A stretch of 64,000 nucleotides of DNA from Minisyncoccia bacterium. Its GTDB lineage: Bacteria > Patescibacteriota > Minisyncoccia > Phycocordibacterales > UBA918. The notes under the pieces are model-generated. The model ran no database searches. It worked only from the letters and a program-made list of their open reading frames with translations, and was not told the DNA's origin. The position numbers and the translations under genes were made by a program. Each line of letters begins with the position of its first letter. The stretch's first letter is position 1. The stretch covers positions 2,526-66,525 of the forward strand of contig JBGSSW010000016.1 in the NCBI GenBank assembly GCA_041736805.1, read 5' to 3'. This document shows positions 13,227-62,236 of this stretch, piece by piece.

Positions 13227-13238
13227 ATTCTGTAGTTT

Positions 13239-14321: not shown

Positions 14322-14398
14322 GACTACAAGTGTATCACACCAAAAAATAGAAAAATGGCTGCTAAAATGCTATTATTTCTGCATTAACTATTGATATT

Positions 14399-39842: not shown

Positions 39843-40811
39843 TTAATTCGTGTTTAAAATTTCTTCTGAGCTTGTAGTTTGGACTTGACTACTTGAACTA
39901 AAATTTAGAACAGGAACATCGCTTAAACGAGTGGATTTTCTAATTGCTTCACGAACCTGTTCATCAATTATAAAATCTGATTTCACTTGTACTGGTTTTA
40001 AACCAACCGATACATACAGCAAACTATTCATTGCTAAAGGTGGAGTTATGTAACCATATTGTTCTGGCTGTGTTGGTTCACTTTCCACCCTAACAATTTC
40101 TCCATAAATCCCATTTGAGACATTTGGTAATATAACTAACTGTCCTAGGCGTATTGAGACACCTTGGGGCAAACTAACTCTAGCGACCCCGCCACCAACA
40201 CCTTCAATAGAAGAAAAAACGTTTGGACCAATAATAAAAGCCGTTGATTTAAAGCCAGGGGAAGTAAATAAATCTACAAAGGAGTAATCCTCTGCTGTAT
40301 GAACTACTATTCCTAGAACCGAATCTACTCCCGTATAAACAGGAGAACCTTCAACTACCCCATCGCTTATCCCCTTATCAATTTGAAGTAGGTCGTAAGT
40401 TAAAGTATCAGGCCGTGCTAAAACTCTTGCTACCACTCGATCATCAAAGACTGAAGCTTTATTCATTCCTCGCAGTTGCATGTTTTCTTCTAGCAAACGA
40501 TTAATGGACATTTGTGTACCACCACGGGTAGCTATTTCGCTTTTGAGTGACTCAATTTCACTTACTAAGTCTGCTTTAGAACGTAAGTATGATGGAAATA
40601 GTCTATCACTAGTTTTAACCCAAGTAGTAGTATAATGAATTGGGAACAAAACTATGGCTGATACTCTTGATATCAACCACGGAAAAAGTAGGCCTACAGA
40701 AATAACTACAGTTAAAATAATTATCCAAGAACGATAATTTTTATGTGAGGCGTGGCGATAATTCGCCTTCTTTGTCGATGAGTATTTCTGCATATAAATC
40801 AAGGTTTTCAA
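39843..40811 (-). CDS. mreC: rod shape-determining protein MreC
   Basis: An N-terminal TM segment and coiled-coil are followed by the beta-rich MreC domain. The start may be the Met at 40793; the ORF overlaps the mreB 3' end. Confidence 0.7.
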   Translation of the reverse strand: MKTLIYMQKYSSTKKANYRHASHKNYRSWIIILTVVISVGLLFPWLISRVSAIVLFPIHYTTTWVKTSDRLFPSYLRSKADLVSEIESLKSEIATRGGTQMSINRLLEENMQLRGMNKASVFDDRVVARVLARPDTLTYDLLQIDKGISDGVVEGSPVYTGVDSVLGIVVHTAEDYSFVDLFTSPGFKSTAFIIGPNVFSSIEGVGGGVARVSLPQGVSIRLGQLVILPNVSNGIYGEIVRVESEPTQPEQYGYITPPLAMNSLLYVSVGLKPVQVKSDFIIDEQVREAIRKSTRLSDVPVLNFSSSSQVQTTSSEEILNTN

Positions 40812-41814
40812 TTACAATTCCTGCTCCCCTAATGACGGCTCTAAGTGGATCAGGCACAACAATTACTGGAACTTGTAGGCTTTCTTCCAAAAACGAACTG
40901 AGCCCAGGAATTAAAGCTCCTCCACCAGAAAGATGAATACCTCTTTGCATAATATCAGCCAAAACCTCAGGTGGAGTTCGCTCTAAAACAGATCTAGTTG
41001 ATTCCACTATAATATCCACCTGCCCGGCAATAGCATCATGAATATCTCTGGCGGTGATAATCACCTCTCGGGGTAAACCAGTCATAACGTCCCGACCTCG
41101 AATCACCATTTCACTACCGTTACTTTCTTGTCGAATAGAAGCTAGGGCGATTTTCGCATCCTCTGCCGTTTTGTCACCCACATAAATTTTAAATTGGTCA
41201 CGAATATAAGAAGTAATTGAGTCATTTAGATGGTCTCCTGCTACACGAAGATTTTTAGAAACGACAATTCCACTCAAGGATATAACAGCGATATCAGTAG
41301 TCCCCCCACCGATATCAATCACCATACTGCCAACAGCCTTACCTATTGGTAGTTTTGCTCCAACAGCTGCAGCCATTGGTTCTTCAATTAAGAACACTTC
41401 TCTAGCTCCAGCGTTCTTAGCTGCATCACGAGCAGCTCTCATTTCGACATTTGTAATACCGGAAGGAACACCAACCAAGATTCGTGGGGCAATAAAAGTA
41501 CGTAAGTCGGCGTGAACTTTGTTAATTAAATAACCCAACATTTCTTCAGTTACTTCAAAGTCAGAAATAACACCGTCCACCAAAGGACGGATGACTTCAA
41601 TGTGTTGAGGAGTCCTGCCCTGCATAGTCTTAGCTTCCTGTCCAACAGCAACCAATTGGCCAGTTTTTTTATTAATAGCTACAATTGTAGGTTCATTCAA
41701 TACAATTCCCTTACCTTTCACATAAACTAACGTATTAGCAGTTCCAAGGTCAATAGCGATGTCGGTAGATACCGCCGCAAGCATTTTATTCAAGTATTTT
41801 GATACAAAACTCAT
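40741..41814 (-). CDS. mreB: rod shape-determining protein MreB
   Basis: Actin-fold motifs DLGTANTLVYV, VIDIGGGTTDIAV and LSGGGALIPGL. Confidence 0.9.
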   Translation of the reverse strand: MSFVSKYLNKMLAAVSTDIAIDLGTANTLVYVKGKGIVLNEPTIVAINKKTGQLVAVGQEAKTMQGRTPQHIEVIRPLVDGVISDFEVTEEMLGYLINKVHADLRTFIAPRILVGVPSGITNVEMRAARDAAKNAGAREVFLIEEPMAAAVGAKLPIGKAVGSMVIDIGGGTTDIAVISLSGIVVSKNLRVAGDHLNDSITSYIRDQFKIYVGDKTAEDAKIALASIRQESNGSEMVIRGRDVMTGLPREVIITARDIHDAIAGQVDIIVESTRSVLERTPPEVLADIMQRGIHLSGGGALIPGLSSFLEESLQVPVIVVPDPLRAVIRGAGIVIENLDLYAEILIDKEGELSPRLT

Positions 41815-45505: not shown

Positions 45506-47140
45506 TTATGCTGGTTTGTGCTTTCTTTGTAAATCCAGAATTTGTTTAATTACTCGTCTCAAGTAATGTTCAAAGGTTTCACCTTGTTCATAGATTATTC
45601 CTTGTTCATAGCGCCAGCCATTCATATAGTCAGTAATACTTTGTTTGATTTCCTGTGTTGAGCCTTCGAATCTTCCAGCTAAAAGAAGTGGTATTTGTAG
45701 GTCTGCAAGTTTTTTAAAGAGTGGATGCTCCCTTCCTTTAGGACCGGTACCAAAAAGGCCGCTTTTCTTAAATAGTGACCAGTCAGATAAAAGTTGATTA
45801 AGTCCATCATCAACCTCACGGGTTTTTAGAGGATCGGCAGAATCACTAGTAGCTAAGGAAGAAGCTAAGGGTAAATCATTTGGAGTTTGCAGTTTTTGGC
45901 CATCATTATTAATGGATGGAGGTTTTGGAACTGGTAAAATAGCTTTTAAAGCTTCTTCTCTAGCTTCTTTTTCAGCAGCTAAAGCAAATCCAGAGACTTC
46001 TTCTTCTGCAGATTTGATCACCTCACTATCGTCTAAAATAACTGGTGACGCTATTGGTGGCGGTAGCTCATTTGAAGTGGCCACATTTTCTTGTTGGCTA
46101 GGCACATCATTAACAAGTTCAGGTTTCGACTGATTTGGAACAGGCTCTGGTCTTGACTGATTCGGAGCAGCTTGATTTTGAGATTGAGACTGCGCGTGCG
46201 TGCTAACTGCGACTTCGACTGACTTGTAAGCAGCTTCCAAACGTTGCATAGCTTCCTCAATTTGACCTGGAGCACCTCCACTAAGTCTCTTCATTGCATC
46301 CAGCAGTGCATTCATATACTCCCGTCCTACTACATTATCGATATCAACTAGATTTACAGGATTACCTACTTTTGTATTTACCGCTAGTTTTATTTCACGA
46401 ATTCGGTCTAGATAATTTTGACCTCCAGCTGACATCTGTGGCTGTGCGGGAGTAGGGTTTTGAGTTGGAGCATCTTGAGCTGGTAGTGGGGCTGGTGCTA
46501 CGTATTGAGGTTGAGGAGGTACTACAGGTTGTGGTGGTACATATTGTGGTTGCGCAGCCACTGGTTGTGGGGCTGGTGATACATATTGTGGTTGCGCTAC
46601 TGCTGGTTGAGGGGCTGGATATGCGTATACTGGAATATTTTGAGTAACAACTGGCGGTACGTACTGAGAAGCAACTGAAGCTGGTTGTGGGGTTGGTGGT
46701 ACTACAGGTTGTGGTGGTACATATTGTGGTTGAGCAGCCACTGGTTGTGGGGTTGGTGCTACGTATTGAGGTTGAGGAGGTACTACAGGTTGTGGTGGTA
46801 CATATTGTGGTTGAGCTACAGCCTGGGGTTGGATTGGTGTTTGATTCGTGACAGCTCCAAAAACCGGCGCCGGTCTAGAAGTACCGAAAGATAAATCTTG
46901 AGCAGACTGAACCACTTGAGAAGTAGATGAAAGTGTAGAAATTAAGTTATGTGCTGCTAACTTCTGCTCTAAGGCGATACGCACAGAAGCATCTCCCCCA
47001 CCATTTTTGTATAAAAAAACCAAATCTCGTAATTCATTCTTGTCAGACGGACTTAAAGAGCTAGAACGAATAGTTGCAAGCAAAGACATCACTCCCGCTT
47101 GGGAGTTAAAATTAAAACCTAAAGAACTTCCTTGATCCAT
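45506..47140 (-). CDS. Pro/Gln-rich tandem-repeat protein (544 aa) with a globular C-terminal domain
   Basis: The central part contains at least eight repeats of PQYV(P/A)PQPVVPP / PQPVAAQ. The N-terminus MDQGSSL and the upstream roughly 60 nt are shared with the 439-aa paralog gene. Confidence 0.5.
   Translation of the reverse strand: MDQGSSLGFNFNSQAGVMSLLATIRSSSLSPSDKNELRDLVFLYKNGGGDASVRIALEQKLAAHNLISTLSSTSQVVQSAQDLSFGTSRPAPVFGAVTNQTPIQPQAVAQPQYVPPQPVVPPQPQYVAPTPQPVAAQPQYVPPQPVVPPTPQPASVASQYVPPVVTQNIPVYAYPAPQPAVAQPQYVSPAPQPVAAQPQYVPPQPVVPPQPQYVAPAPLPAQDAPTQNPTPAQPQMSAGGQNYLDRIREIKLAVNTKVGNPVNLVDIDNVVGREYMNALLDAMKRLSGGAPGQIEEAMQRLEAAYKSVEVAVSTHAQSQSQNQAAPNQSRPEPVPNQSKPELVNDVPSQQENVATSNELPPPIASPVILDDSEVIKSAEEEVSGFALAAEKEAREEALKAILPVPKPPSINNDGQKLQTPNDLPLASSLATSDSADPLKTREVDDGLNQLLSDWSLFKKSGLFGTGPKGREHPLFKKLADLQIPLLLAGRFEGSTQEIKQSITDYMNGWRYEQGIIYEQGETFEHYLRRVIKQILDLQRKHKPA
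46440..46860. repeat. tandem DNA repeats (units of about 60 to 180 nt) encoding the PQYVPPQPVVPP repeats
   Basis: The 35-mer ggtactacaggttgtggtggtacatattgtggttg occurs three times on the plus strand. Shorter variants are interleaved. Confidence 0.6.
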
Positions 47141-47149
47141 AACCTAATT

Positions 47150-47188
47150 ATCATAACACCATGCATACTATAAAGCAGCTACTTTATT
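47150..47188 (-). promoter_or_regulatory. promoter/5' module (extended -10 TGTTATGAT 9 nt upstream of the ATG, plus the conserved upstream box ATAAAGTAGCTGC), duplicated at 48571-48609
   Basis: Minus-strand reading ATAAAGTAGCTGC-n13-gTGTTATGATaattaggtt-ATGGATCAAGG. A near-identical block precedes the 439-aa paralog. Confidence 0.4.
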
Positions 47189-47242
47189 TGAATGACCTGT
47201 GTATTATTTTAAATTTATTTTCTTACTTAACTAAGTGAGATT

Positions 47243-48562
47243 TTATTTATCTTTAAATTTATTTAGCCGTACAGCTTCTGATTCAGCCACATAGCGTGAA
47301 AACAAATCAATAAGTGTAGTTGTGCCTTCTTGAGGTAAGTGTTCTTTCATAGTAGTCATTTCATCGATAAGATCTAACCACGCTAGGTAGGTATCGTACT
47401 TAATATTTTCAGTTTTCATAATTTCTCTAACCCGTGCATTAGGTAAATTTTGAAATTTCTGTATCTCGGAAAGACTCATATCCTTTAATAAATTGAAGGG
47501 GCTGTTATAAATTCCTTTATTAAATAAATCATAAGTTGAATTATCAAGATTTTCTATAGCTCTATTGAGAATTTTTGCAAATGCCTTCTCATTACCGAAT
47601 ACTTTACTAACAAATAACTTGTAGTCTGGCTGGTCAAAATAATTACCGTCTGGTTTAAAGAATCTAGGCGGGGTGATAGGCTCAACCTCTTTTTTAAACA
47701 CGCTCTTAATTCCAATCTTAGGACCACTATCAGTAACAATAGAAGAATTTTTCTGAGTTTTTATAATAGCTGTCTCCAATTTTTTAATTAAAGGTTTGAC
47801 TTCTTCTTCTTTACTGGAAGTAAATTTAATCGGAATATCTTTGACAGCCTCGTTTTCTTCCACCCTCAAAGAGGCTGACTTTTTAAAACTATCAGAAACT
47901 ATTTCAACCCCCAAAATTTTACCTAACTCAAGACTGACGGCACTTAAATTTATCTCTTCGCCGGGATATATTAAATCAATATCGTCACCACTGCGTAAAT
48001 TTAAAGTAGCTCTTAATTCAGAAGTACCCTCAATTGTGTCAAAAAGCCTATCTAGTACTTCCATTCTTTTACCGGCTGGAAGATCTTTTATATCTTCATT
48101 AAATTGTTTTTCAATAATGTTCCAAAAAGTATCCTCCTTCTTAACTACATAAATGATTTCCTTCTTCTCGCTGGAGGGGTTTTTAGTAGTAGATATTGAT
48201 TCACGAGGTTTTAAATCCAAATCATCAATAATGAGACGGGTAAATTTTGCTGACTGCCACCAACTATATCCGCCATATTTAATTTGCAACTTATTAAATA
48301 TTTCATCTTCGAGTAAGTTTTTAGACATATTATAATGAACAGATAATAGTTCATCTGCCAAAAACTTAATGGATTGTCCCAGTTCAATCTTTATTTCAGA
48401 GTCAAGAGAACTACATGCAGAAGACCCAATTAACTCAAGGCCAGAAAGAATAGTTTCATACTTAATATCACTTTGATTAACACCGTAGTAATCAATTGAA
48501 ATTTTTTCAAATTTTAAAGACAAGTCTTCTAAGCTTTTGTCTAAACTACTTCTTTGATCCAT
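47243..48562 (-). CDS. hypothetical protein (439 aa): soluble paralog of the C-terminal module of the adjacent 1472-aa protein
   Basis: Shared blocks: KYGGYSWWQSAKF vs KFGTESWWQAAKI; LysM-like YVVKKEDTFWNI...DLIYPGEEINL vs VESGDSVSSIF...HLIRPGENIDV; and a roughly 130-aa C-terminal block (PDYKLFVSKVFG...TYDLF...NIKYDTYLAWLDLIDEM...LPQEGTTTLIDLFSRYVAE vs PEYQKFITKLFG...TYALF...RINYETLIAWFNKIDQM...LPNTPQTTLQDIYSRSVAE). No signal peptide or TM segment. Confidence 0.55.
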   Translation of the reverse strand: MDQRSSLDKSLEDLSLKFEKISIDYYGVNQSDIKYETILSGLELIGSSACSSLDSEIKIELGQSIKFLADELLSVHYNMSKNLLEDEIFNKLQIKYGGYSWWQSAKFTRLIIDDLDLKPRESISTTKNPSSEKKEIIYVVKKEDTFWNIIEKQFNEDIKDLPAGKRMEVLDRLFDTIEGTSELRATLNLRSGDDIDLIYPGEEINLSAVSLELGKILGVEIVSDSFKKSASLRVEENEAVKDIPIKFTSSKEEEVKPLIKKLETAIIKTQKNSSIVTDSGPKIGIKSVFKKEVEPITPPRFFKPDGNYFDQPDYKLFVSKVFGNEKAFAKILNRAIENLDNSTYDLFNKGIYNSPFNLLKDMSLSEIQKFQNLPNARVREIMKTENIKYDTYLAWLDLIDEMTTMKEHLPQEGTTTLIDLFSRYVAESEAVRLNKFKDK

Positions 48563-48570
48563 AATTTATA

Positions 48571-48609
48571 ATCATAACACTACCTTTATTTTACCGCAGC
48601 CACTTTATA
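48571..48609 (-). promoter_or_regulatory. second copy of the promoter/5' module (ATAAAGTGGCTGC-n14-gTGTTATGATtataaatt-ATGGATCAAAG)
   Basis: Direct comparison with 47133-47200. Arms of 11 of 11, 10 of 10 and about 13 of 14 nt are identical. Both genes start MDQxSSL. Confidence 0.4.
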
Positions 48610-48641
48610 GACCAATTTGAGGGATTAAATCGCAACACCTT

Positions 48642-48911
48642 CTACGCGGCAACTTCCTTTAATTCCGATCGCAAAATTGTTATCTCTTGTTTCAACAACT
48701 CCTCAAACCTAGGATAACTGGAACAGAGTGACTCTAAAAAATTATCCTCTGCCACGTGAGCATCAATGTAAGATTCAAATTGGTTTGATTGCTCTTCGTC
48801 TTCTTCGGCTAGATACTGCATCAAGGCACTTTGAAATACTAGAGTACCCAATTCCTCAGCAAAGACATTTTCGTCTTTACTATCAATTTGATTTACTTGT
48901 TGTGTTGTCAT
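48642..48911 (-). CDS. small acidic protein (89 aa) coupled to the giant protein gene
   Basis: Its start lies 2 nt after the stop of the 1472-aa ORF. It is highly acidic (E/D-rich) with predicted helices. No family recognised. Confidence 0.4.
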   Translation of the reverse strand: MTTQQVNQIDSKDENVFAEELGTLVFQSALMQYLAEEDEEQSNQFESYIDAHVAEDNFLESLCSSYPRFEELLKQEITILRSELKEVAA

Positions 48912-48913
48912 AA

Positions 48914-51900
48914 TTAAGCCTTAATTGAACGTACATTTGCTTGCTTCAGCTTCATAAAATCCTCTGCTACTGATCTGGAGTAAATATCTTGTAGTGTGGT
49001 TTGTGGAGTATTTGGTAATTTACCTTTCATTTGGTCAATTTTATTAAACCAAGCAATAAGTGTCTCATAATTAATTCTATTTTTATCAGCAAATTCATGC
49101 AGATATTCGTTCGATTGCTCTCTAAGCAGTTTAAGATTATCCAAATTTAATTCCTTCAGAGATTCGTACGGACTTTCATATGATTTAAATCTATCAAAGA
49201 GGGCGTATGTTTTTGCTTCAAAACTAGACGCATTTCTACCTACAGCATAGTCAAAGTTTTTTGGACTACCAAATAGTTTAGTAATAAATTTTTGATACTC
49301 AGGTGACTTTAGGAAGTTGTCTCCGACTACAAAAGGTCTCGGTGCTTCAGTTGGTAAAGAGGGTTTGTAATTAAGGGTCTCGCCCAAAGCTGGTTTAAAT
49401 CCATATGAGTTTTCGTCCATAACTCTAACTGGGGTTTTGACAGTTCCATCCAAAATGCCTTCGGCTTTAGCGGCATCTAATTCTGTTTCAGTTGGGGGCT
49501 TCCACGGTGTCTCTTGAGCAATTTTGATTTGCTTTTCGAAAAGCGTCTCTGGGTTACCAGCACCTTGTCGATGTAATATTTCAGCCGTTGGTGTAGCTAT
49601 GCCCGATTGGCCAATTTTTAAATCAGGGTCAACAAACTTGCCTAACAATTTTGCTACGTCAATATTTTCACCTGGTCTTATTAAATGAGGATTGCCGCTA
49701 CTAATGCCAAGCTTCTTCCAATCTTCAGGGCTAAGAGTCCAAGTTGGATTTTGAGCATTTGTCAGTTCTGGAAACTTTTGCAACATTAATTTTGACAGCC
49801 CTTCTCGTGTCACTCCTTCTGGCTGCTTAAGATTACCTTGATCAAATTGGATCTGGAGATTCTTTTTAAAGATGCTAGAAACACTATCGCCAGACTCTAC
49901 TTTATGCTCAGGTATTTTTATCTCTACTGCTTCCTTATGAACAACATCATTAATTTTGTCGTTAACCGGACCCATCTGATTCTTCATCACATCCTCGTTT
50001 GGCATAACGTCCCCAGTTGGCTTTACTACTGAATCACCAACCCCGACCACTTCAATTGAACCAATTTTTACATTATTTATCTTAGCTGCTTGCCACCATG
50101 ATTCTGTACCAAATTTGGCCTCCAATTTGTCCATCAAAAGTCTTTCCACTTGGGCATTCGGCATATGAGGATGAGCTGACAAAATATCTTTCACTGTCAA
50201 ATCAGCTAATTTCTGTACTTCCAACATTTGTCCTGAAGATAGTTCAAGACTACCGGTTTGCAAACCTTGCAGCTCAATTCCTGAAACAACTGTTTTGGTA
50301 AAGGTACCACTCGGGTCATCGTTCAATACTGAGACTGATTCAGAAAGTGAAAAAGGAGCTTTTGCGTCAGTCACACTATCAAAGTGTGGGTCATTACCCG
50401 CTTTCATTACATCATCATTGTAGACTGGTTCAGGGTGTTCGACTGTTGCCACAGCATTCTCAGCCGCATCTTCATTTATATTGTCATTAACTGGGTCGCC
50501 AGATTTCATCACGTCGTCATTGTAGACCGGCTCAGGATTTGCCATAGTTGCCTTTGCATTCTCAGCCGCTGATCCAGCAGACGCTGGTGACATTGCTACC
50601 TTTGGAACCGCCTCACCACCCCCAGAATTACCACCATTAGCTCCTCCGCCCACACCAGACGGTGAAAGAATATCGTACGCTGCCATCGCACCACGAGAAC
50701 CCCCTGCAGCTAAGATAGTTACCCCAATAGTCATTGCAGTTTTACGTTTTTTTGCAGTATCAACTTGCGCATTTGCCAACATAACTGCTCTTCTGGCTTC
50801 AGCAACCGACATTGTATTTGAGTTTTCAGAATTTGTTAGTAAAATTTGAAGCCTTTCGCCTGCACTTTTTACTCTTTTTCCTTCATATTTATTGACGGCC
50901 GCTCCTGCCCCCATACCAAGGGCAGTTGAGACACCCCACCTTCCAGCCCCTGCCGCTCCACCAAGTGCCGCTGAAGCAGCCACGACTCCTGCTCCGGCTG
51001 CCCCTACTGCCAAAACTCCCAGGGTTGCACCTGTCATAGAAGCTACCGCTAGACCAATCGCTAATCGTACTTTTTTATTTTTCGGCAGAAGTTTTGCAAT
51101 CCTTCCTACCGTCGCTATAGTCTTGGGCCAATCATTAATAAAGGCATCCCTTTTTTCAGCTTTAGAAGCAAGGATAGTTTTTTGTTCAGCAGCATCAATA
51201 CCTACAATTAGTTTGTTCTGTAAACCTGTCTTAATCTGGTCACTATCAGCTGTCAATACAGTATCTAAGACACGATCTTTTCTTCTATCTTCTATCTGAA
51301 TAAGTAATTTCTCACGGTATTGTTCGGCCGCTTCATCAGCCTCCTTTCTTAATTTACGTAAATGTTCTGCCGGACTCGATTCTCCGTTGAATGAATTCTT
51401 AATCCCCCCCGTTATCTTTTCTTTTATACTTTGTTTATGATAGCTAGACAAAGCCTGACGATATGCCTCGTCACACTTATCCATACTGAGACGAGCTAAC
51501 ATTGTCTCATTAGCCAAACTTTTTCTTTCAGCTTTTCTTTCATCTATAAAACCTACTCTTTCGTGAGTCGGTGAATCAGGATTGATTCCTACTGCTCGCA
51601 ACCTCTCTGCCCTAGCAGCATCCTCAGGACTAACTATCGAACCAGGTGCTGCTGCTACAGGAGGCAAATCATCTGGTGTAGGTTCTGGAGCTGGTGCGGT
51701 ATCGGGACTCTGTGTATCGCTTACAACATCAGGGGCAACCGGAGCAGCTTCACCATCAGTTGCTGGAGGAGGCACGTCTAAATCAGGACTCATCATATCA
51801 GCAGAAGTCTTTTCTTCTAGAATTTCTTCAACCGCTGGTTTACCATAATAATTACCTGAATTATTATTTAAAATATCAGATTCTAATACTTCAACCCCAG

Positions 51901-53332
51901 CGGTCGATTCAGCCTCAATTTCTGGGACTGTTTCTGGAACATAATTTTCCAAACTTTCCTCATCATATAATTCTTCCACTTCCCGGCTGATACTCTTCTC
52001 TTTCAACTTTAAACTTAGCTTTCCTAGACTTATTTTAAGAGCTTTTAGATAGCGCGATTTAATTTTTAAAGCAATGTTCTTATCGGACTCTTTGACACTT
52101 TCAATTTTGTTCACCAAATCTACTATTTCGTTAACTAACGATTCATTCACTTCTTTTATACGCGATGAATCAAAAAGTGTCTGGGTTTCTTTGGCTAACC
52201 TTTCCATTTGAGCGTCCATTTCTTCTAAATCTTTTGGTTCGTTTTCACTATCAAAAGAACCCTCTGTTTTAGGACCTCTTACTTGTCTTTCCTGCTCTTC
52301 TTTTTCCAGTAGTTTTACTAACTCACCAGGATTTTCTAAATAAAACGCTACTCCGTTTTTTATTTCATTATAATTACTATCTATTGCTCGACTAATTTCA
52401 ATTTTTTCTTCTACACTCTTTCCGGTTCCGACTTTTTTCCTGACTAAATCACCAGTGTTTCTTCTAATTCTTTCTAAAATTTTACTTACTGATTGCGGCA
52501 ACCTATCTATTCCAGCCACTTCTAAAAGACCGTGCTGGGCTTTTTCCATAATAAACCGTATCGGAATATTTTTTCCATTTCCATCTTTCAATTCTTTGCC
52601 ATTTCTATATCTCTCGGCCAACTTTGGATTACCACTCAAAACTTCTCTGGTCCCAAAAACTTCTTCGGCCGTTGGGAAATCACCAGCTTCAAGTTTATTA
52701 AAATTTGTTTCCTCATTTGATTCAAAAACTAATGAGTTTGAAACCTCTTCCCCTGGTACCAAAGCCTCACTTTCAATTGAATCAGTATCCACACTAAAGG
52801 GACCAGAATAATACTCCTCTGAATTATCAAATGATTTAGTTTCTTCCTTTGTGGCTTCCGGGTCAAAATCTTCCACACCCATCTTGGTTAAGTATTTATT
52901 CCAAGCCATTTCATGCTCATCCCGAGGCCCGACAGAAAACTCATGGGGGTTTTTGTTTGTTATTTTTTCATTAAAATTAGCGATACCCTGACGAAACTTA
53001 AAAAAAGCCTGCTCTACTTGATACCTTTTTTTATGATCATCTGTGGTTGTAGTTTCATTTATTAGCTCAATCAATTCTTTGTAGGCAATACTAACCGTAC
53101 TTACTAACTCACTTAAATTACCCACCTCAACCGAATTAATTGCTTGATTTTTAAAATCCTCGTATTCTTCGACAGCGTCTGTAAGTCGTTCAGAAAAAAA
53201 AGTGTCTTCTGAATCGTCTTCTTCATAATTATCTTCTAAGCCCTGTTGCCCAGCCTTTACCAGAGCAGCCCGAGTTAGTCTTTCGACTCTTTCTCTTTCA
53301 AAATTATGAATCTCACTCTCAGATTTTCCCAT
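48914..53332 (-). CDS. giant bitopic protein (1472 aa): N-terminal acidic/coiled-coil region, Gly/Ala-rich TM hairpin, then repeats, LysM-like motifs and a conserved C-terminal module
   Basis: Its start lies 8 nt after the stop of the VirB4-like gene. Residues 1-740 are charged and helical. A Pro-rich linker (PAPEPTPDDLPP) follows. Hydrophobic glycine-zipper segments AIGLAVASMTGATLGVLAVGAAGAGVVAASAALGGAAGAG and MTIGVTILAAGG follow. A Gly/Asn-rich stretch and two repeats of about 36 aa (PEPVYNDDVMK) come next. The C-terminal roughly 430 aa are paralogous to the 439-aa protein. Confidence 0.6.
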   Translation of the reverse strand: MGKSESEIHNFERERVERLTRAALVKAGQQGLEDNYEEDDSEDTFFSERLTDAVEEYEDFKNQAINSVEVGNLSELVSTVSIAYKELIELINETTTTDDHKKRYQVEQAFFKFRQGIANFNEKITNKNPHEFSVGPRDEHEMAWNKYLTKMGVEDFDPEATKEETKSFDNSEEYYSGPFSVDTDSIESEALVPGEEVSNSLVFESNEETNFNKLEAGDFPTAEEVFGTREVLSGNPKLAERYRNGKELKDGNGKNIPIRFIMEKAQHGLLEVAGIDRLPQSVSKILERIRRNTGDLVRKKVGTGKSVEEKIEISRAIDSNYNEIKNGVAFYLENPGELVKLLEKEEQERQVRGPKTEGSFDSENEPKDLEEMDAQMERLAKETQTLFDSSRIKEVNESLVNEIVDLVNKIESVKESDKNIALKIKSRYLKALKISLGKLSLKLKEKSISREVEELYDEESLENYVPETVPEIEAESTAGVEVLESDILNNNSGNYYGKPAVEEILEEKTSADMMSPDLDVPPPATDGEAAPVAPDVVSDTQSPDTAPAPEPTPDDLPPVAAAPGSIVSPEDAARAERLRAVGINPDSPTHERVGFIDERKAERKSLANETMLARLSMDKCDEAYRQALSSYHKQSIKEKITGGIKNSFNGESSPAEHLRKLRKEADEAAEQYREKLLIQIEDRRKDRVLDTVLTADSDQIKTGLQNKLIVGIDAAEQKTILASKAEKRDAFINDWPKTIATVGRIAKLLPKNKKVRLAIGLAVASMTGATLGVLAVGAAGAGVVAASAALGGAAGAGRWGVSTALGMGAGAAVNKYEGKRVKSAGERLQILLTNSENSNTMSVAEARRAVMLANAQVDTAKKRKTAMTIGVTILAAGGSRGAMAAYDILSPSGVGGGANGGNSGGGEAVPKVAMSPASAGSAAENAKATMANPEPVYNDDVMKSGDPVNDNINEDAAENAVATVEHPEPVYNDDVMKAGNDPHFDSVTDAKAPFSLSESVSVLNDDPSGTFTKTVVSGIELQGLQTGSLELSSGQMLEVQKLADLTVKDILSAHPHMPNAQVERLLMDKLEAKFGTESWWQAAKINNVKIGSIEVVGVGDSVVKPTGDVMPNEDVMKNQMGPVNDKINDVVHKEAVEIKIPEHKVESGDSVSSIFKKNLQIQFDQGNLKQPEGVTREGLSKLMLQKFPELTNAQNPTWTLSPEDWKKLGISSGNPHLIRPGENIDVAKLLGKFVDPDLKIGQSGIATPTAEILHRQGAGNPETLFEKQIKIAQETPWKPPTETELDAAKAEGILDGTVKTPVRVMDENSYGFKPALGETLNYKPSLPTEAPRPFVVGDNFLKSPEYQKFITKLFGSPKNFDYAVGRNASSFEAKTYALFDRFKSYESPYESLKELNLDNLKLLREQSNEYLHEFADKNRINYETLIAWFNKIDQMKGKLPNTPQTTLQDIYSRSVAEDFMKLKQANVRSIKA

Positions 53333-53340: not shown

Positions 53341-56106
53341 TTACATCATACCCCCTATTGCACTTGTAGCAACTGGCTTTTTGGCATAACGGGCAGATAT
53401 TTCTGCTTCTACCTCGGCTCGCGGTCGACCGTGTTTGGCAGCACTCATAGCAATCAGTTCTGCTACCCTATTTGGATCAGACTGAATTGGTGGTCGCATC
53501 GCCACACTAAAGGGTTTGGTTGGTATGCCATTGGCCAAGATACGCACTAGAGCATTGTAATTTGGGACATTCATTAAATCTCTCGCCTCAAACACCGGGG
53601 CGAATTGCTGCTCTAAAAACTGAGCGTCTTCTGAACCAACTCGGAAAGAAACCAAAGAACCGACATTACCGAAAACAGCATCCTTGATACTTTGATCTAA
53701 CTGAGCAATAAACTGATGTACGACAGTCAGACTCAGCTTGTATTTACGAGCTTCAGAAAGAATTGAAGCAATCGCTGGAGTAGAAACGTTTTGAAACTCA
53801 TCAATATGTAAAAAGAATGGTGGGAAACTTTTTGAAGCATCATCAACTCTTGAAAGTGCTGCCATTAATATCTTGCCGACAAAAATCATTCCGATCAGAT
53901 TAGCATTGATTTCACCCAGTCGACCTTTAGAAAGATTTACCAACAAGATTTTTTTCTCGTCCATCACCTGGCGGAAATTAAAAGCGGATTTTTGCTGACC
54001 AATAATCGGTCGCATGTAGTCGTTGGCTGTAAAGACGTCAAACTTAGATACGATGTAAGGGACAATATTTTCTAGGGAGGCTTCCCCGCCAGCCTTGGTA
54101 GCAATTTCTGTCCAAAACTGAACCACCACTGGATTCTTGGCTTTTGATAATTTATATCTTCGGTACTGTGCGTCCACCATTACACGGGAAATGTCCATCA
54201 AAGTATTGCCACTTTCTGGATCTTCCATCACTAGCATCGTGGCGTTGCGGAAGTATTGTTCAAACATCGGACCCATACTTTCAGGATTAGCACCATAAAG
54301 TTTCTGGAAAATTGAAAATAGTTCATTGACCACAAAGGTCTTTTGTTCTGGTTTGGTGATATCATACTCCAGCATATTAAGGCCTACCGCACTCTCCATT
54401 CTTGCTGGGTCAAAATAAATAACATCCTGCTCTCTTTCCTTTGGCATGGCTCCCAATACTTCTTCAATATCAGTGCCGTGAGGATCAATCATACAAACAC
54501 CATTGCCAGATTGAATATCCTGAATAATCGTATTGGTCATAAACTTAGACTTTCCTGTACCAGTTTGCCCAATAACATATAGATGTCGCATCCGATCAAG
54601 CTCGGTCATATAAATTGGCCTTTCTACACCACGATGTCGGTTGTCGCCAATCAGAGTCCCTTGGGTTGGTATATCATTTGGCGCTGGAGCGGTATTAGAT
54701 TGTGATTGCTTAAATTGAGGTGAGCTCAAAATACCATTACTAGGGAAATGAATCATTGTCGCCAGCTCAGTTAATGACAGGGGCAAGGCCGCTTTAGCTG
54801 AGAACTCACGAAATGAAAAAGCCTTCTGCAAATGTAATAAAGAACTACCAGTAGCTTTTTTAAAAGCAAAAGAATTACCTTCAACTAAATCAAACTGATT
54901 AAAAGTTGATTGAATTTCGGTCATTATTTGCTCAGCTCGAGCTGGATCTGCCGCTGAAACAGCCAAACGTATATTTGTTTCAATAATTTCAGTTTGGATT
55001 TTCTTATTAAAAATATCCACCTTATCTATATCAGGTGAAGTAACAACTTCTGGTTGATCGGTTTTGGTCTTTGAATTAAATAAATCAGAAATCGCTCCTA
55101 TGATTCCCCCACTTACACTGCTGCGTGAAATGGCGTCAGACGCTTTCTTACCCTTTTGAATATTTTTAATAATTTCCTGATAAGATTTCCGATACTTTTT
55201 TTGTGGATACCGCATCACAAATTGTACAGCTGCACCACCGCCTTCTCTCTCAATTTTTGAAAATGCATTCAATATCACAGCTAAAGGATCGGAAGAAAAA
55301 CCGTCAGGTGTCCGTAGCGGGTAAATAGGATGTTTTTTGATTTGTGCTTCTGAAATAATAGTCTTTCCTTTGTCGACAAAGATATTATAGTCGTGTGCTT
55401 GAATAATTAACTCAGCGTGAGGGAAAAGCGAGAGGGTTTGTTTTTCAAACAAATTTACAAACTTGTTCGGTACGGCTACATAAAAAACAATATCATCACT
55501 ATTGTCAGCCACTGCTATTTCAATCACAAAATGATTTTCAGACTGCTGTGAGCCTATTGTACGTAGTCCAGCAAAAAGTTGCTCCATCATGCTCACAATC
55601 TCTGCCAACTGGTATTCACGGCCATCTTTAGATTTTACCTCTGGTAAGGTCACTTCATAGAGTGTCATGCTCAACATCTGCCAAGGTGGAACGTTTTCCT
55701 TTAAGTCTTGGATTTTTGAACCGGAACGGATTTGTTCAATTAATTGCCGGTGAACTTCGTCGACTATATAGGCGTTGTCCATTTTTTCTAGTACCGACAA
55801 GGCATTGCGAATCCCTTTCTCCTTGGCTAATTCTAAAATATCGGTCACTGGATCGTGTGAAATGGCGACTTGTTCAATTGAAGCAGCTAAAGCTGGTTCA
55901 TCCAGCAAGTGTTCACGATCAAGAATAATTCTCGGTGTAAAAGAAGCGTATTCTTTTATTTCTTGATTGCCGATTGTTTCAGTATCAGAATTATCACTTT
56001 CAGGGTTACGTTGCAAAAGCTCTCGCTCTCGCTCAGCAATACGTTCACGTAAGTACAACAACTCCTCCTCTGGAGAGGAAAACTGTTTTGGTATCCCTTC
56101 TGGCAT
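53341..56106 (-). CDS. VirB4/TraC/TrbE-family (DUF87/HerA-like) type IV secretion-type ATPase
   Basis: 921 aa. The C-terminal ATPase carries Walker A VIGQTGTGKSKF, Walker B FFLHIDEFQN and a downstream VVHQF...L motif, with domain spacing typical of VirB4/TraC. The N-terminal roughly 480 aa are not assignable. Confidence 0.7.
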   Translation of the reverse strand: MPEGIPKQFSSPEEELLYLRERIAERERELLQRNPESDNSDTETIGNQEIKEYASFTPRIILDREHLLDEPALAASIEQVAISHDPVTDILELAKEKGIRNALSVLEKMDNAYIVDEVHRQLIEQIRSGSKIQDLKENVPPWQMLSMTLYEVTLPEVKSKDGREYQLAEIVSMMEQLFAGLRTIGSQQSENHFVIEIAVADNSDDIVFYVAVPNKFVNLFEKQTLSLFPHAELIIQAHDYNIFVDKGKTIISEAQIKKHPIYPLRTPDGFSSDPLAVILNAFSKIEREGGGAAVQFVMRYPQKKYRKSYQEIIKNIQKGKKASDAISRSSVSGGIIGAISDLFNSKTKTDQPEVVTSPDIDKVDIFNKKIQTEIIETNIRLAVSAADPARAEQIMTEIQSTFNQFDLVEGNSFAFKKATGSSLLHLQKAFSFREFSAKAALPLSLTELATMIHFPSNGILSSPQFKQSQSNTAPAPNDIPTQGTLIGDNRHRGVERPIYMTELDRMRHLYVIGQTGTGKSKFMTNTIIQDIQSGNGVCMIDPHGTDIEEVLGAMPKEREQDVIYFDPARMESAVGLNMLEYDITKPEQKTFVVNELFSIFQKLYGANPESMGPMFEQYFRNATMLVMEDPESGNTLMDISRVMVDAQYRRYKLSKAKNPVVVQFWTEIATKAGGEASLENIVPYIVSKFDVFTANDYMRPIIGQQKSAFNFRQVMDEKKILLVNLSKGRLGEINANLIGMIFVGKILMAALSRVDDASKSFPPFFLHIDEFQNVSTPAIASILSEARKYKLSLTVVHQFIAQLDQSIKDAVFGNVGSLVSFRVGSEDAQFLEQQFAPVFEARDLMNVPNYNALVRILANGIPTKPFSVAMRPPIQSDPNRVAELIAMSAAKHGRPRAEVEAEISARYAKKPVATSAIGGMM

Positions 56107-56125: not shown

Positions 56126-56162
56126 TACAAGAAATGAATTTGCGAGCAATCCACCTAAATAA

Positions 56163-56192
56163 AAACCGTCAGGCTACGCCTGACGGTTTTTA
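56163..56192. terminator. rho-independent terminator (ccgtcaggc-tac-gcctgacgg) between the mreB paralog and the VirB4-like gene
   Basis: A perfect 9-bp stem is flanked by AAAAA upstream and TTTTTTATTT downstream. It works on either strand. Confidence 0.6.
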
Positions 56193-56205
56193 TTTAGATA
56201 TCTTG

Positions 56206-57252
56206 TTAGCGCTTGGCCAAAACGGTCTTCTTGTAAGCATCTAAGTGTTCTAGAGCAATACCCGTGCCAGTAGCGACACAAAAAAGAGCTTGGTCTGCCA
56301 GATGAGCCTTCACTCCCGAACGTCGTTTGACTAGCTCAGGAAAGTTTCTTAGTTGTGAAGTCCCGCCAGTCATAATTACTCCCCCATCAATAATATCTGC
56401 TGCGAGTTCAGGTGGGGTCTCTTGAAATACATCTTTAATCGCTTTTATCATTTCACGCAAGTCTCGACTTATTGCTCGCACTACTTCATTTGTTCTTATC
56501 TCAGTTGTTCTAGGTAAACCAGAGAGTACATCTCGCCCTTTAATGTCCATTACTAGTTCTTCTTCCAAAGGTAAGGCTGAACCAATTTTAATTTTAATTT
56601 CTTCGGCTGTCTTTTCACCAATGGAAAGATTTCTAGTTTTTTTAACATAATCAATTATCGAAGCATCGATTCGATTTCCCGCACACTTCACTGAGTTTGA
56701 AGCTACAATTCCTCCTAGAGAAATCACGGCTACGTCGATTGTTCCGCCGCCAATATCGACAATCATGTGTCCTTGTGGTTCATAAATCGGCACCCCGGCT
56801 CCAATCGCCGCCAAAATCGGCTCCTTAACCACATAAGCATTTCTAGCTCCAGCTTTAAGAGTTGCCTCAACCACCGCTCGTCGTTCAGTTGAAGTCACTC
56901 CAGCTGGTACGGATATCATTACATCAGGTTTAAATAAGTTGAACCGACTCATGGATTTACGAATAAAATATCGCAACATAACTTCGGTGACTCGGTAATC
57001 TGCAATTACTCCGTCTTTCATCGGTCGATAGGCCTTGATACTGTCTGGAGTACGTCCTATCATTCGCTTTGCTTCTATTCCGACAGCTAAGACTTCATTA
57101 TCATCAGAGATAGCCACTACAGAGGGTTCGTTTAAAACAATTCCTTGTCCCGGTATAAATACCAAAATACTAGTTGTACCTAAATCAATACCAATCTTCG
57201 GGTTTAAATTATTCCAAAACATCATATTATTTATCTTGCCAACATAGTACAA
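56206..57252 (-). CDS. second MreB/Mbl-like actin homologue
   Basis: KIGIDLGTTSILVF, MIVDIGGGTIDVAV and MTGGTSQLRNF match MreB phosphate-1/phosphate-2/adenosine motifs. The ORF-track start at 57252 is TTG; a Met at 57225 or 57222 is the more likely start. Confidence 0.8.
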   Translation of the reverse strand: MYYVGKINNMMFWNNLNPKIGIDLGTTSILVFIPGQGIVLNEPSVVAISDDNEVLAVGIEAKRMIGRTPDSIKAYRPMKDGVIADYRVTEVMLRYFIRKSMSRFNLFKPDVMISVPAGVTSTERRAVVEATLKAGARNAYVVKEPILAAIGAGVPIYEPQGHMIVDIGGGTIDVAVISLGGIVASNSVKCAGNRIDASIIDYVKKTRNLSIGEKTAEEIKIKIGSALPLEEELVMDIKGRDVLSGLPRTTEIRTNEVVRAISRDLREMIKAIKDVFQETPPELAADIIDGGVIMTGGTSQLRNFPELVKRRSGVKAHLADQALFCVATGTGIALEHLDAYKKTVLAKR

Positions 57253-57307: not shown

Positions 57308-58807
57308 ATGCAAAATATTGGACACCGCATCGCTGACATGCGTGAGACAAAGGGAATTACTCAGGCAGACCTAGCCAAAAAGCTCAAAACTACTCAAAGT
57401 GCTATTGCTCGTATTGAATCTGGTAAACAAAATATTAGTGCCGATATGCTCAAACGTATTGGTAAAGCTCTGGGTAAAAACCTCATTACCCTTTCTCCAG
57501 GAACAGTTAATATCCAAATTGAAGGTGGCAAAAAACTGTCAGGTACTATCGAAACCAATACCTCAAAAAATGGTGCGGTCGGTCTTTTGTGTGCCAGCTT
57601 ACTAAACCGCGGCATCACCACATTAAACCGCATGCCGAGAATAGAAGAAGTCCATCGAATAATTGAAGTCTTAGAGAGTATTGGGGTTAGGGTTGAATGG
57701 AAAGGAGATAAGGTAGTAATTACACCACCCAAAAAAATTAACCTAAATAAAATTGATGTTGAAGCTGCTAAAAAAACTCGCAGTATTGTGATGTTTATCG
57801 GTCCACTAATTCATCGCCTTGGCTCTTTTAGCCTTCCCCAATCGGGAGGCTGCAAACTAGGCAGCCGAACTGTTAGACCTCATTTCTATGCCCTAGAAAA
57901 ATTTGGTGTAAATATAAATACTACAGATAAAAATTATGAAATTAAGACAAAATTAACTTCTCCAGAAGAAATTATCCTTTATGAATCAGGTGACACTGTC
58001 ACGGAAAACACCTTATTTGCAGCTGCTCTAAACCAAGGTACCACTACCATAAAATACGCTTCGGCCAATTATATGGTTCAAGAAGTTTGCGCTTTCTTGA
58101 GCTTACTGGGAGTAAAAATCGAAGGCGTTGGTACGACTACTCTTAAAGTAACCGGGATAAAAGAAATTAACCAAGCTGTCGAATACACCCTTTCAGAAGA
58201 CCCGACTGACACAATGTTTTTCTTGGCCGCTGCCATAGTGACTGACTCTTCTATCACTATTACTCGTTGTCCAATAAATTTTCTCGAACTTGAACTACTG
58301 AAATTGGAAAAAATGGGTTTTGAATATAAAAAATCAAAACCTTACCTTAGTTACAATGGAGTGACTAACCTGGTAGATATCACGACCAAGCCTTCCAAAC
58401 TAGTAGCTTTACATGAAAAAATTCATCCGGCAGTTTACCCCGGCTTAAATATAGACAACCTACCTTTCTTTGCTGTTATCGCTACTCAGGCCGAAGGACA
58501 AACTCTCATTCATGATTGGGTCTATGAAAAACGCGCCATTTATTTTACCGAGCTAGACAAACTCGGCGCTGACACCGTCTTGGCCGACCCCCATCGAATT
58601 TACATTAATGGCCCGACACCACTTCGAGCAAGTGAGCTAATCTGCCCTCCAGCCTTACGTCCGGCTACCATCCTCCTTATTGCCATGCTCGCTGCCAAAG
58701 GACATTCGATTTTACGCAATATTTATAGTATTAATCGTGGTTATGAAAAACTAATCGAAAGACTATCTTCAATTGGGGCCAGGGTCTCATATCTTGACGA
58801 ATTCTAA
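57308..58807 (+). CDS. murA: XRE-family HTH domain fused to UDP-N-acetylglucosamine 1-carboxyvinyltransferase (MurA)
   Basis: Residues 1-60 read IGHRIADMRETKGITQADLAKKLKTTQSAIARIESGKQNIS, a canonical XRE HTH. The remainder is MurA/EPSP-synthase fold (LSGTIETNTSKNGAVGLLCASLL and downstream). 499 aa in a single continuous ORF. Confidence 0.75.
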   Translation: MQNIGHRIADMRETKGITQADLAKKLKTTQSAIARIESGKQNISADMLKRIGKALGKNLITLSPGTVNIQIEGGKKLSGTIETNTSKNGAVGLLCASLLNRGITTLNRMPRIEEVHRIIEVLESIGVRVEWKGDKVVITPPKKINLNKIDVEAAKKTRSIVMFIGPLIHRLGSFSLPQSGGCKLGSRTVRPHFYALEKFGVNINTTDKNYEIKTKLTSPEEIILYESGDTVTENTLFAAALNQGTTTIKYASANYMVQEVCAFLSLLGVKIEGVGTTTLKVTGIKEINQAVEYTLSEDPTDTMFFLAAAIVTDSSITITRCPINFLELELLKLEKMGFEYKKSKPYLSYNGVTNLVDITTKPSKLVALHEKIHPAVYPGLNIDNLPFFAVIATQAEGQTLIHDWVYEKRAIYFTELDKLGADTVLADPHRIYINGPTPLRASELICPPALRPATILLIAMLAAKGHSILRNIYSINRGYEKLIERLSSIGARVSYLDEF

Positions 58808-60809: not shown

Positions 60810-61343
60810 ATGGCTAAATTAGTACCAGAAAACCATCCTGTCCTACATGCAATGGCCGAAGAAATAACCGAGGCTGAATTTGCTGATGGAACCGTAAAAA
60901 AGCTACTAAGCGACCTACGTCAGGCTATCAAAACCTACAAAGTAGACGGTTTTACAGCTGTAGCCATCGCTGCTCCACAAATTGGGGTTGGTAAAAGAAT
61001 GTTTATAATTGAAGATCAAAGTACTGAGCCAGACAGATTACCAACAGTTATTGCCATCAACCCGCGACTAACCAAGCTATCTAAAAAGACACATGTGGTG
61101 GGTGAAGGCTGTCTGTCTATTCCAGACCGTTACGGACTGGTTCGTCGCTCAACTAACGTGACAATTGAAGCGATTGATGAAAATGGGACGCCTTTCAAAC
61201 GTGGGGCTGGCGGGCTTCTCGCGCAAATTATGCAGCACGAGACCGACCACCTAGACGGCATCCTTTTTACCGACCGAGCCGAAAAAATCTGGACTAAGGA
61301 AGAAATAAAAAATAAAGACCAAGCCGAAGCTCCGTTGACATGA
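60810..61343 (+). CDS. def: peptide deformylase
   Basis: Motifs GVGKRMF (motif 1), EGCLSIPD (motif 2) and QHETDHLDG (motif 3). Confidence 0.9.
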   Translation: MAKLVPENHPVLHAMAEEITEAEFADGTVKKLLSDLRQAIKTYKVDGFTAVAIAAPQIGVGKRMFIIEDQSTEPDRLPTVIAINPRLTKLSKKTHVVGEGCLSIPDRYGLVRRSTNVTIEAIDENGTPFKRGAGGLLAQIMQHETDHLDGILFTDRAEKIWTKEEIKNKDQAEAPLT

Positions 61344-62197: not shown

Positions 62198-62232
62198 AAA
62201 ATGGGACGCCTTACGGCGTCCCATTTTTTATT
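62198..62232. terminator. bidirectional terminator (atgggacgcc-ttac-ggcgtcccat) between fmt and hpf
   Basis: A perfect 10-bp stem is flanked by AAAAAA upstream and TTTTTTATT downstream. Confidence 0.65.
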
Positions 62233-62236
62233 CTCT

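Follow-up and report, generated by a model that had tools for sequence, protein, structure and literature searches.

In a 64-kb stretch of the genome of a Minisyncoccia bacterium (contig JBGSSW010000016.1; referred to here as the window, whose positions serve as gene coordinates throughout), we analyzed a cluster of genes on the minus strand, two of which encode proteins sharing the same C-terminal module. The cluster begins with a gene for an MreB-like protein (56206-57252), which adjoins the gene for a 921-aa VirD4/TraG/TraD-type P-loop ATPase (53341-56106). The ATPase gene ends 8 nt before the start of a gene for a 1472-aa protein (48914-53332), which we refer to as the giant and which consists of a charged N-terminal part of ~750 aa, a Gly/Ala-rich membrane region, a repeat linker, and three C-terminal blocks, B1, B2, and B3. 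A gene for an acidic, helical protein of 89 aa (small89, the product of what we refer to as the small gene; 48642-48911) starts 2 nt past the stop codon of the giant gene. It is followed by a gene for a 439-aa protein (47243-48562), here referred to as the free protein or free copy, which comprises B1, B2, and B3 and has neither a transmembrane (TM) segment nor a signal peptide. The last gene considered here encodes a 544-aa Pro/Gln-rich (PQ) protein (45506-47140) and is a conserved member of the cluster as well as the donor of the leader of the free gene. Thus, the region holds a lineage-specific partial gene duplicate, in which the last ~430 residues of the giant are present again as a separate gene.

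Using BLASTP with compositional adjustment, residues 37-427 of the free protein aligned with residues 1014-1457 of the giant in a single collinear alignment (26% identity, 109 bits, E=3e-29), and all remaining matching segments had E>4. When block profiles built from family members were searched against the open reading frames (ORFs) of the window, each matched both proteins and no further ORF; E-values for the free protein and the giant, respectively, were 7.6e-26 and 1.5e-29 for B1, 5.9e-30 and 5.6e-17 for B2, and 2e-51 and 5.3e-46 for B3. The similarity far exceeds what is expected by chance or from low-complexity sequence, an objection that both the pairwise and the profile comparisons exclude, and the two proteins are true paralogs across the whole C-terminal module, as an original prediction made from the DNA letters had proposed. 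The motifs quoted in that prediction were all found at the expected places, i.e., KYGGYSWWQSAKF at residues 95-107 of the free protein with its counterpart KFGTESWWQAAKI at residues 1073-1085 of the giant, YVVKKEDTFWNI at residues 138-149 with VESGDSVSSIF at residues 1145-1155, DLIYPGEEINL at residues 196-206 with HLIRPGENIDV at residues 1216-1226, and the pairs TYDLF/TYALF and RYVAE/RSVAE, both of which lie within the C-terminal block. We also considered the PQ protein as a third paralog and rejected it based on BLASTP E>3 to both paralogs and the lack of a match to any block profile. A hydrophobic region is present in the giant (residues 757-889) and no hydrophobic segment in the free protein, whose ORF cannot be extended upstream, as a stop codon lies one codon ahead of its ATG.

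Given that the sequence comes from a metagenome-assembled genome and that strains differ strongly in their giants, a second copy could have been created by an assembly chimera joining two strains' versions of the locus. We regard this as hardly credible. Over 46787-50562, which includes both gene junctions, the sequence has 100% identity to an independent Logan assembly of SRR28170465, and the duplicate arrangement is therefore not a quirk of one assembly. Moreover, assemblers would not confuse two copies that share only 26% of their residues, and at the junction, the module is fused in frame to a neighbor's leader in a diverged copy, not joined by a repeat collapse.

A partial duplicate is indicated not only by the significant collinear similarity but also by an identifiable junction, which consists of a duplicated leader and seven codons. 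The captured leader of the free gene (48542-48641, minus strand) comprises a 79-nt upstream region and codons 1 to 7. The original is the intergenic region upstream of the PQ gene (47141-47242, minus strand), which reads AATAATACACAG ... GTGTTATGAT ... ATG. The free leader followed by ATG GAT CAA AGA AGT AGT TTA (MDQRSSL) aligns with the PQ leader followed by ATG GAT CAA GGA AGT TCT TTA (MDQGSSL); upstream of the start codons, the similarity extends over ~65 nt, and the copy has diverged and includes GTGTTATGAT ~9 nt before the ATG of the free gene. This leader element is conserved 5' of the PQ genes at three related loci (L002, L003, and L004), with a GTG(G/T)TATGAT box ~9 nt before the ATG that could represent an extended -10 element placed for a near-leaderless transcript. 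We note that scans for promoter and terminator consensus sequences gave counts not above those in shuffled sequence. In the AlphaFold2 (AF2) model of the free protein, the junction is located ~5 residues before the first strand of B1, so that the whole module is set behind the copied start. The junction documents that the 3' part of a giant gene was put behind a copied PQ promoter-like region and its first seven codons, most probably by a local rearrangement, the order of events being reconstructed from the present arrangement. The duplication itself is ordinary genome tinkering, and its junction is unusually readable since the promoter and start of a neighbor were captured.

Just past the stop codon of the free gene, the segment 47196-47228 (minus strand) is a possible, weakly supported relic of the 3' end of a small gene. 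When this segment was aligned locally with the final codons of the small gene at locus L006, the score was 14, which was reached by 1/500 shuffles; the comparison with the small gene of L002 gave p=0.06, and those with other small genes were not significant. If this relic is real, the free gene would once have had its own small gene, as giant 3' ends do.

In a neighbor-joining tree based on B1, B2, and B3, the free copy grouped with the L002 giant and the family members P0006, P0010, and P0002 (best identity 50%), and the tail of the window giant was on a long branch elsewhere (best identity 35%). Similarly, small89 is an outlier, with 33-46% identity to its relatives versus 76% between the small proteins of L002 and L006. 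These patterns suggest either that the free copy is the conservative, resident version and that the giant and small89 diverged or that the full-length pair was imported. Two histories would fit. In the first, a unit consisting of the giant 3' end, the small gene, and the PQ 5' end was duplicated in tandem, the second small gene was lost, and the upstream copy diverged faster. In the second, an imported, divergent unit of giant, small gene, and PQ 5' end recombined into the resident giant gene just before B1 and thereby stranded the resident tail. The second history is slightly favored because the whole upstream unit is an outlier and because the tree does not make the two copies sisters, although long-branch effects could give the same picture.

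A divergent allele that replaced most of the resident giant gene by recombination might also have left the free gene as a non-functional leftover, i.e., an old 3' end that was stranded and is still open by chance. That the free gene is unique to this genome among the loci examined, that a probable decayed small-gene relic lies right beside it, and that it groups with the giants of relatives when the full-length giant and small89 are outliers would all agree with such a leftover. However, the ORF is intact over 439 codons, the copy has the consensus residue at all 21/21 invariant or nearly invariant columns of the family, and it scores at least as well as the tethered copy against the profiles; because of the conserved columns and the profile scores, the free copy has evidently been maintained. 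In addition, the junction equips the copy with a promoter-like element that is conserved and with a start codon placed precisely at the domain boundary, and the copy, whose nearest known relative is only 50% identical, is too old to have avoided decay by chance. We therefore consider a non-functional leftover quite improbable and proceed with a maintained gene that arose by local rearrangement.

The AF2 model of the free copy, which was computed from a 22-sequence family alignment and has a mean predicted local distance difference test score (pLDDT) of 77.6, contains three units that are predicted well, with disordered linkers between them (residues 122-133 and 224-291). The three conserved blocks of the original prediction are thus recovered, and the profiles match each of them in both proteins; the single domain that it took them to form resolves into three independent folded domains. 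In the free protein, B1 (48203-48529, minus strand; residues ~12-120) is an alpha/beta domain modeled with pLDDT 72-96 and contains a WWQSAK box at residues 101-106. In the giant, B1 (50048-50317, minus strand) spans residues 1006-1095 with a WWQAAK box at residues 1079-1084. In a Foldseek search of the PDB with B1, the five best matches were FliL periplasmic domains (7sgn and 9hmf_O among them), followed by more FliL (6ahq) and the SPFH domains of stomatin, flotillin, and prohibitin, with alignments of ~110 columns, TMt of 0.53-0.68, probabilities up to 1.00, and E-values of 0.02-0.2. Band 7/SPFH proteins also headed the B1 search of a viral fold library. Neither the two proteins nor the B1 consensus matched Pfam Band_7 or FliL. 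Overall, B1 with its WWQ box has a predicted FliL/SPFH-like fold, a resemblance at the level of the fold and with marginal statistics. B1 superposes on FliL of Helicobacter pylori and Vibrio (7sgn and 6ahq) and on the SPFH domain of mouse stomatin and, as the FliL domain does, lies after a membrane region; it differs from these proteins in having neither sequence similarity nor a flagellar context and in the long repeat linker that separates it from the membrane.

B2 of the free protein (47945-48154, minus strand; residues 137-206) is a LysM-type domain with an inserted helix at residues ~163-179, and B2 of the giant (49643-49918, minus strand; residues 1139-1230) is of the same type with a longer insert and a weaker profile match. 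Individually, these domains score low against Pfam LysM (PF01476): The free copy reached 12.3 bits (E 0.17, profile positions 1-12 only; cut-off 20.9), and the giant had no LysM match at E<=1. The consensus of 91 family instances of B2 scored 22.9 bits and, with the insert deleted in silico, 26.3 bits. Among PDB sequences, a 4-sequence family profile matched LytE (2.7e-6) and, in both its start half and its end half, SafA, and a 22-sequence profile matched LytE (3.4e-8), Ecp6 (0.004), and SafA (0.008); all seven matches of the latter profile at E<=10 contain LysM (LytE, Ecp6, SafA, Kbp, and 6ve2_O among them). The predicted secondary structure of the free copy has strands (E) and helices (H) at E137-139, H146-158, H163-179, H181-186, and E203-205, and the AF2 model over 69 residues has the order beta, alpha, extra alpha, alpha, beta, in which the order fits LysM and the size and number of helices do not. 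The median length of B2 is 68 residues, compared with 43 for the Pfam model, and the stretch between KVESGD and ENIDV, both included, measures 83 aa in the giant; Foldseek matches to phage LysM models were weak (TMt 0.45, probability 0.6). B2 shares with the LysM domains of LytE, SafA, and Ecp6 the start motif Y-x-V-x-x-G-D-T-L-W-x-I, the end motif L-x-L-x-S-x-D-x-L-I-Y-P-G-E-x-L-N-L, and the predicted beta-alpha-alpha-beta order; it differs in that essentially all members have an extra helix of ~25 residues between helix 1 and helix 2 and in that B2 is present once, flanked by two unrelated domains. These comparisons support that B2 is a LysM derivative with a helical insertion of ~25 residues that is standard across the family and not peculiar to this pair. 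The LysM-like element described in the original prediction as split and unusual is, accordingly, LysM related, but it is not truly split, and the form with the insert is the standard one in the 91 instances.

B3 is located at 47249-47677 (minus strand; residues 296-438) in the free protein, where it forms a seven-helix C-terminal domain, and at 48920-49351 (minus strand; residues 1328-1471) in the giant. Modeled alone by AF2 from 40 sequences, B3 is an all-alpha domain of ~140 aa with seven helices (pLDDT 94.8, predicted TM-score 0.88). It had no match in Pfam at E<=1, no sequence match in the PDB, and no fold match in the PDB by Foldseek (best E 1.2, TM<=0.33), and a word-indexed protein search started from an alignment of B3 yielded no match either. 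The all-alpha C-terminal domain B3 is, thus, undescribed.

When a profile made from the two paralogs and two homologs was used in an exhaustive HMMER search, 739 cluster representatives were recovered at E<=1e-3, of which 215 had E<=1e-10. The best matches are mostly 1000-1900 aa in length and start with a long, charged N-terminal part, which is followed by a hydrophobic region rich in Gly and Ala and, at the very end, by B1-B2-B3. Proteins of a second class (300-900 aa) lack a hydrophobic segment and have a different conserved N-terminal domain and B3 only; all 47 representatives of this B3-only class are without a signal peptide and a TM segment. An N-terminal domain common to both classes was considered and is not supported, as jackhmmer recovered 46/47 B3-only proteins and no giant, and hhalign gave a probability of 5.9%. 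B3 ends <=15 residues from the C-terminus in 131/137 proteins, with a median distance of 1 residue. Within one polypeptide, modules have been multiplied in several members, i.e., two B3 copies (P0071 and L017), two B1 copies (L017), or two to four B2 copies (P0065, P0081, and P0099); at L017, for instance, 9779-14695 encodes a 1639-aa giant with two copies each of B1 and B3. Module duplication is, therefore, recurrent in the family (L017, P0051, P0071, and P0099), and it normally occurs in frame and not as a separate gene.

The nearest genomic relatives of the window are metagenome-assembled Parcubacteria/Paceibacteria. At L002, L003, and L004, and likewise at P0043, the gene order is MreB-like, ATPase, giant, small, PQ, holB, frr, rseP, proS, and mreB, and a second module gene is absent from L002, L003, and L004. 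In all of five related loci and 36 block-carrying metagenomic loci, we found one copy each. Of the proposed membrane-tethered and free copies, the anchor is indeed confined to the giant; the pairing of the two is not conserved. Two stand-alone homologs that had seemed to represent a conserved free form were rejected as such. In P0003, which lies on a contig with 2x coverage, a frameshift within B1 has split a giant, and in P0012, the contig end truncates a giant gene. Both are trailed by small and PQ genes, as giants are. We conclude that the duplication is a local one-off and that the LysM variant and B3 are family traits. We also observed that L010, another contig of Paceibacteria type, encodes, away from the ATPase, a 754-aa membrane protein (P0066) with two LysM-type blocks and no B3; this gene and a small-like gene (5854-8391) lie between fmt and the gene for an S30AE hibernation factor, where the window has only 39 nt (cf. 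61340-62608).

The genes of the cluster differ in how fast they change. Within the set of the window, L002, and L003, the ATPases share 80-85% of their residues, and the MreB-like proteins of the window and L002 share 92%. Identity is 31-40% between the L002 and L003 giants and only 24-30% between the window giant and either of them, and the C-termini of these two giants match the free copy at 34-45%. Because the giants are only 24-40% identical beside ATPases with 80-85% identity, the gene for the ATPase partner is hypervariable next to conserved neighbors.

To avoid a bias toward B3, we anchored a survey on the ATPase. This survey covered 80 metagenomic loci with 49-85% identity, 47 of which were syntenic with a complete downstream gene. 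The downstream gene encodes a C-terminal B3 at 32/47 loci (10 giants and 22 B3-only proteins), ends in a LysM-type block at 4/47, and has no recognizable block at 9/47, and there is no intervening gene at 2/47, where PQ comes straight after the ATPase. The 32 genes with a C-terminal B3 start -97 to +32 nt relative to the ATPase ORF, and B3-only proteins fill the slot of the giant directly after the ATPase. A second block-carrying gene was found at 0/36 loci with such a gene. B3 as a universal mark of the ATPase neighbor is, therefore, only partly true, and ATPase homologs at about 50% identity occur in other contexts without B1, B2, or B3 blocks. The small gene follows 14/14 assessable proteins with B1 or B2 and 0/22 B3-only proteins, at whose loci it is missing, and its product has the conserved core EE(V/L)GT(L/I)(I/V)FQSALM. 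This co-occurrence with membrane/LysM-bearing partners may be a chaperone-like pattern. The PQ gene always comes next after the B3 protein or the small gene.

The ATPase scored above the Pfam cut-offs for T4SS-DNA_transf (30.6 bits; cut-off 20.1) and TraG-D_C (22.1 bits; cut-off 22), matched DUF87 (27.2 bits) and the NCBIfam TraD family (8.7e-16), and has the Walker A motif GQTGTGKS at residue 513. Based on the Pfam gathering score and the Walker A motif, it is a member of the VirD4/TraG/TraD proteins. It has no hydrophobic segment and, thus, no N-terminal TM anchor, and its homologs carry PF26449 (DUF8128) at the N-terminus. No family belonging to a type IV secretion system (T4SS) was detected among the 10 largest ORFs in the 15-40 kb part of the window that were scanned. 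The ATPase also matches phrog_5156 (unknown function) almost over its full length at 1.4e-81 and PADLOC mad8 at 6.3e-16; in a check for a defense or phage origin, the two paralogs, the small protein, and the PQ protein had no PADLOC or PHROG match. Quinonero-Coronel et al. (2025, bioRxiv 10.1101/2025.01.22.634366) describe orphan VirD4-type coupling proteins as common in genomes of the Candidate Phyla Radiation (CPR), with an open role, and count 5,713 VirD4-type homologs in 2,918 CPR genomes, of which only 148 are near virB4. The 921-aa ATPase resembles the orphan proteins described there (bioRxiv 10.1101/2025.01.22.634366) in that it, too, is without a T4SS gene among the window ORFs scanned. 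As far as its available text goes, that survey mentions neither a conserved downstream partner gene nor B3 or LysM, and the words LysM and hydrolase do not occur in it (bioRxiv 10.1101/2025.01.22.634366). In full-text literature searches, DUF8128 had no match, and no relevant text was retrieved for CPR, coupling proteins, and MreB or for Patescibacteria, LysM, and giant proteins.

B3 invites comparison with XVIPCD of Xanthomonas and BID of Bartonella, which are C-terminal domains of type IV secretion substrates recognized by the type IV coupling protein (T4CP). Like these, B3 is a folded unit of ~120-140 aa that occupies the very C-terminal end of proteins that are otherwise unrelated, are encoded with a VirD4-type ATPase, and are diverse and fast-evolving. 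B3 differs from XVIPCD and BID in having no sequence or fold similarity to them (Pfam; PDB Foldseek), in being linked to a soluble ATPase, and in having no channel genes nearby. Two features of T4SS signal domains, extreme C-terminal position and linkage to a T4CP, are both found for B3, the former in 131/137 proteins and the latter at 32/47 loci.

The Gly/Ala-rich hydrophobic region of the giant (50666-51064, minus strand; residues 757-889) comprises the segments A, A', and B and is built alike in 14 giants. Four to six Lys/Arg residues lie within 15 residues before segment A (25-41 aa), which is followed by a single Lys/Arg and the Gly/Ala segment A' of ~15 residues; then come a loop of ~50 residues whose end is rich in Lys/Arg, segment B (20-26 aa), and acidic residues. 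By the positive-inside rule, this pattern points to a topology with the N-terminus inside, three spans, and the C-terminus outside. As a separate observation, the linker between the membrane region and B1 contains the direct repeat (N/H)PEPVYNDDVMK(S/A)G twice (residues 932-979; 50396-50539), and a related sequence, DVMPNEDVMKNQMGPVNDKIND, sits after B1 of the giant. The linker repeats differ in other giants (e.g., GGTEV.FE...YTEAAP).

Based on these features, the following mechanism may be envisioned. The giant would be the variable partner of the adjacent soluble VirD4-like ATPase, which would recognize B3 as a docking or translocation tag. The membrane region would set the N-terminus of the giant inside and its C-terminal module outside, where the LysM-type B2 would hold peptidoglycan and the FliL/SPFH-like B1 would oligomerize. 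The small acidic protein may assist the membrane/LysM part in the manner of a chaperone. In the free copy, the same wall-binding module would be present in soluble and untethered form, and its export would proceed via B3, which the copy would need because it has no Sec signal. We consider the origin and the domain anatomy described above highly probable and this mechanism tentative; the combined explanation of origin, anatomy, and mechanism is one that we somewhat favor. More speculative, and in our judgment unlikely as a generalization, B3 could represent an unrecognized class of C-terminal recognition/translocation domain serving the orphan ATPases of the VirD4-like type, which are widespread in CPR. 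It would mark hypervariable exported proteins (the free module, soluble B3-only proteins, and giants whose Gly/Ala-rich spans are weakly hydrophobic) that reach the wall or even a host cell without Sec signals, with the small protein as chaperone.

Several observations weigh against this mechanism. The E-values of the FliL/SPFH matches of B1 are marginal, and the individual LysM scores are under the Pfam cut-off of 20.9 bits. In Pfam and the PDB, B3 is without sequence or fold similarity to known T4SS signal domains or anything else, and it is not universal next to the ATPase, given the 4/47 loci with a LysM-type ending, the 9/47 without a block, and the 2/47 without an intervening gene. The ATPase is without a membrane anchor, the window encodes no obvious channel, and no cluster gene of B3-only loci has a recognized Pfam membrane domain. 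The placement of the C-terminus outside is derived solely from the positive-inside rule, and A' is only marginally hydrophobic. Finally, the suggested link between B3 and the ATPase comes from gene context, and the anchorless ATPase and the B3-only loci fit a purely cytoplasmic complex equally well.

Such a complex would require an even number of spans, so that B1 to B3 face the cytoplasm. B3 would then be a stable partner that, in giants, recruits the soluble ATPase to the membrane, the LysM-like domain would bind a cytoplasmic ligand or protein, and the free copy would act in the cytoplasm as a competitor or adaptor for the ATPase that B3 binds. This arrangement is the more economical one, as both paralogs would act in one compartment, and it gives a simpler account of the missing signal peptides: Neither the free copy nor any of the 47 B3-only representatives has a signal peptide or TM segment, the ATPase is soluble, and B3-only loci are without an obvious membrane protein. 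SPFH domains can face the cytoplasm, which also agrees with it. However, the Lys/Arg clusters before A and B and the acidic residues after B favor three spans and a C-terminus outside. LysM and FliL periplasmic domains are characteristically extracytoplasmic, and the extreme divergence of the giant beside a conserved ATPase is more typical of exposed proteins. We, therefore, judge an all-cytoplasmic complex rather unlikely and retain the exported, wall-binding module as our working explanation.

Additional features were noted around the cluster. Beyond the PQ gene lie holB, frr, rseP, proS, a second mreB, and mreC and, further on the same strand, PBP2-type, mraW, ftsI-type, and mur genes. Two MreB paralogs (56206-57252 and 40741-41814), which are 43% identical as judged from their L002 counterparts, bracket the cluster, and the upstream MreB-like gene is kept beside the ATPase gene in most syntenic loci (84-92% identity). 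Between the MreB-like and ATPase genes, a perfect palindromic hairpin with a 20-bp stem, CTAAATAAAAACCGTCAGGC TAC GCCTGACGGTTTTTATTTAG (56155-56197), is flanked by a T-run on either strand and looks like a bidirectional terminator that would part the ATPase-giant unit from the mreB-like gene. No family of Pfam or NCBIfam matches the PQ protein, whose N-terminus is conserved and whose C-terminal ~120 aa are highly conserved (73-81% identical where the ATPase is 65-67% identical); the part in between contains PQYVPPQPVVPP-type repeats. The MurA gene (EPSP_synthase fold; 57308-58807) encodes an N-terminal HTH_3-type DNA-binding domain, and this fusion is kept at the matching position in L007, L008, and L010. 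Elsewhere in the window, the ORFs for a PIF1-like helicase with HTH_40 (20424-22487, minus strand) and an FAD-linked oxidase (22198-24096, plus strand) overlap by ~290 nt; probably, one of the two ORF starts was called too early.

The wider value of the duplication lies in what it exposes, namely, a Paceibacteria ATPase of the orphan-VirD4 kind with a usual downstream partner gene. This partner gene evolves several times faster than its neighbors, and the commonest common feature of its products is a confidently folded C-terminal domain with no known relatives, to which a FliL/SPFH-like domain and a LysM variant are added in the giant form. With its 439 aa, the free copy provides the module as a natural soluble construct. 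Together, the ATPase and B3 are a concrete candidate pair for binding, export, and wall attachment, and the link between them is the part most worth following.

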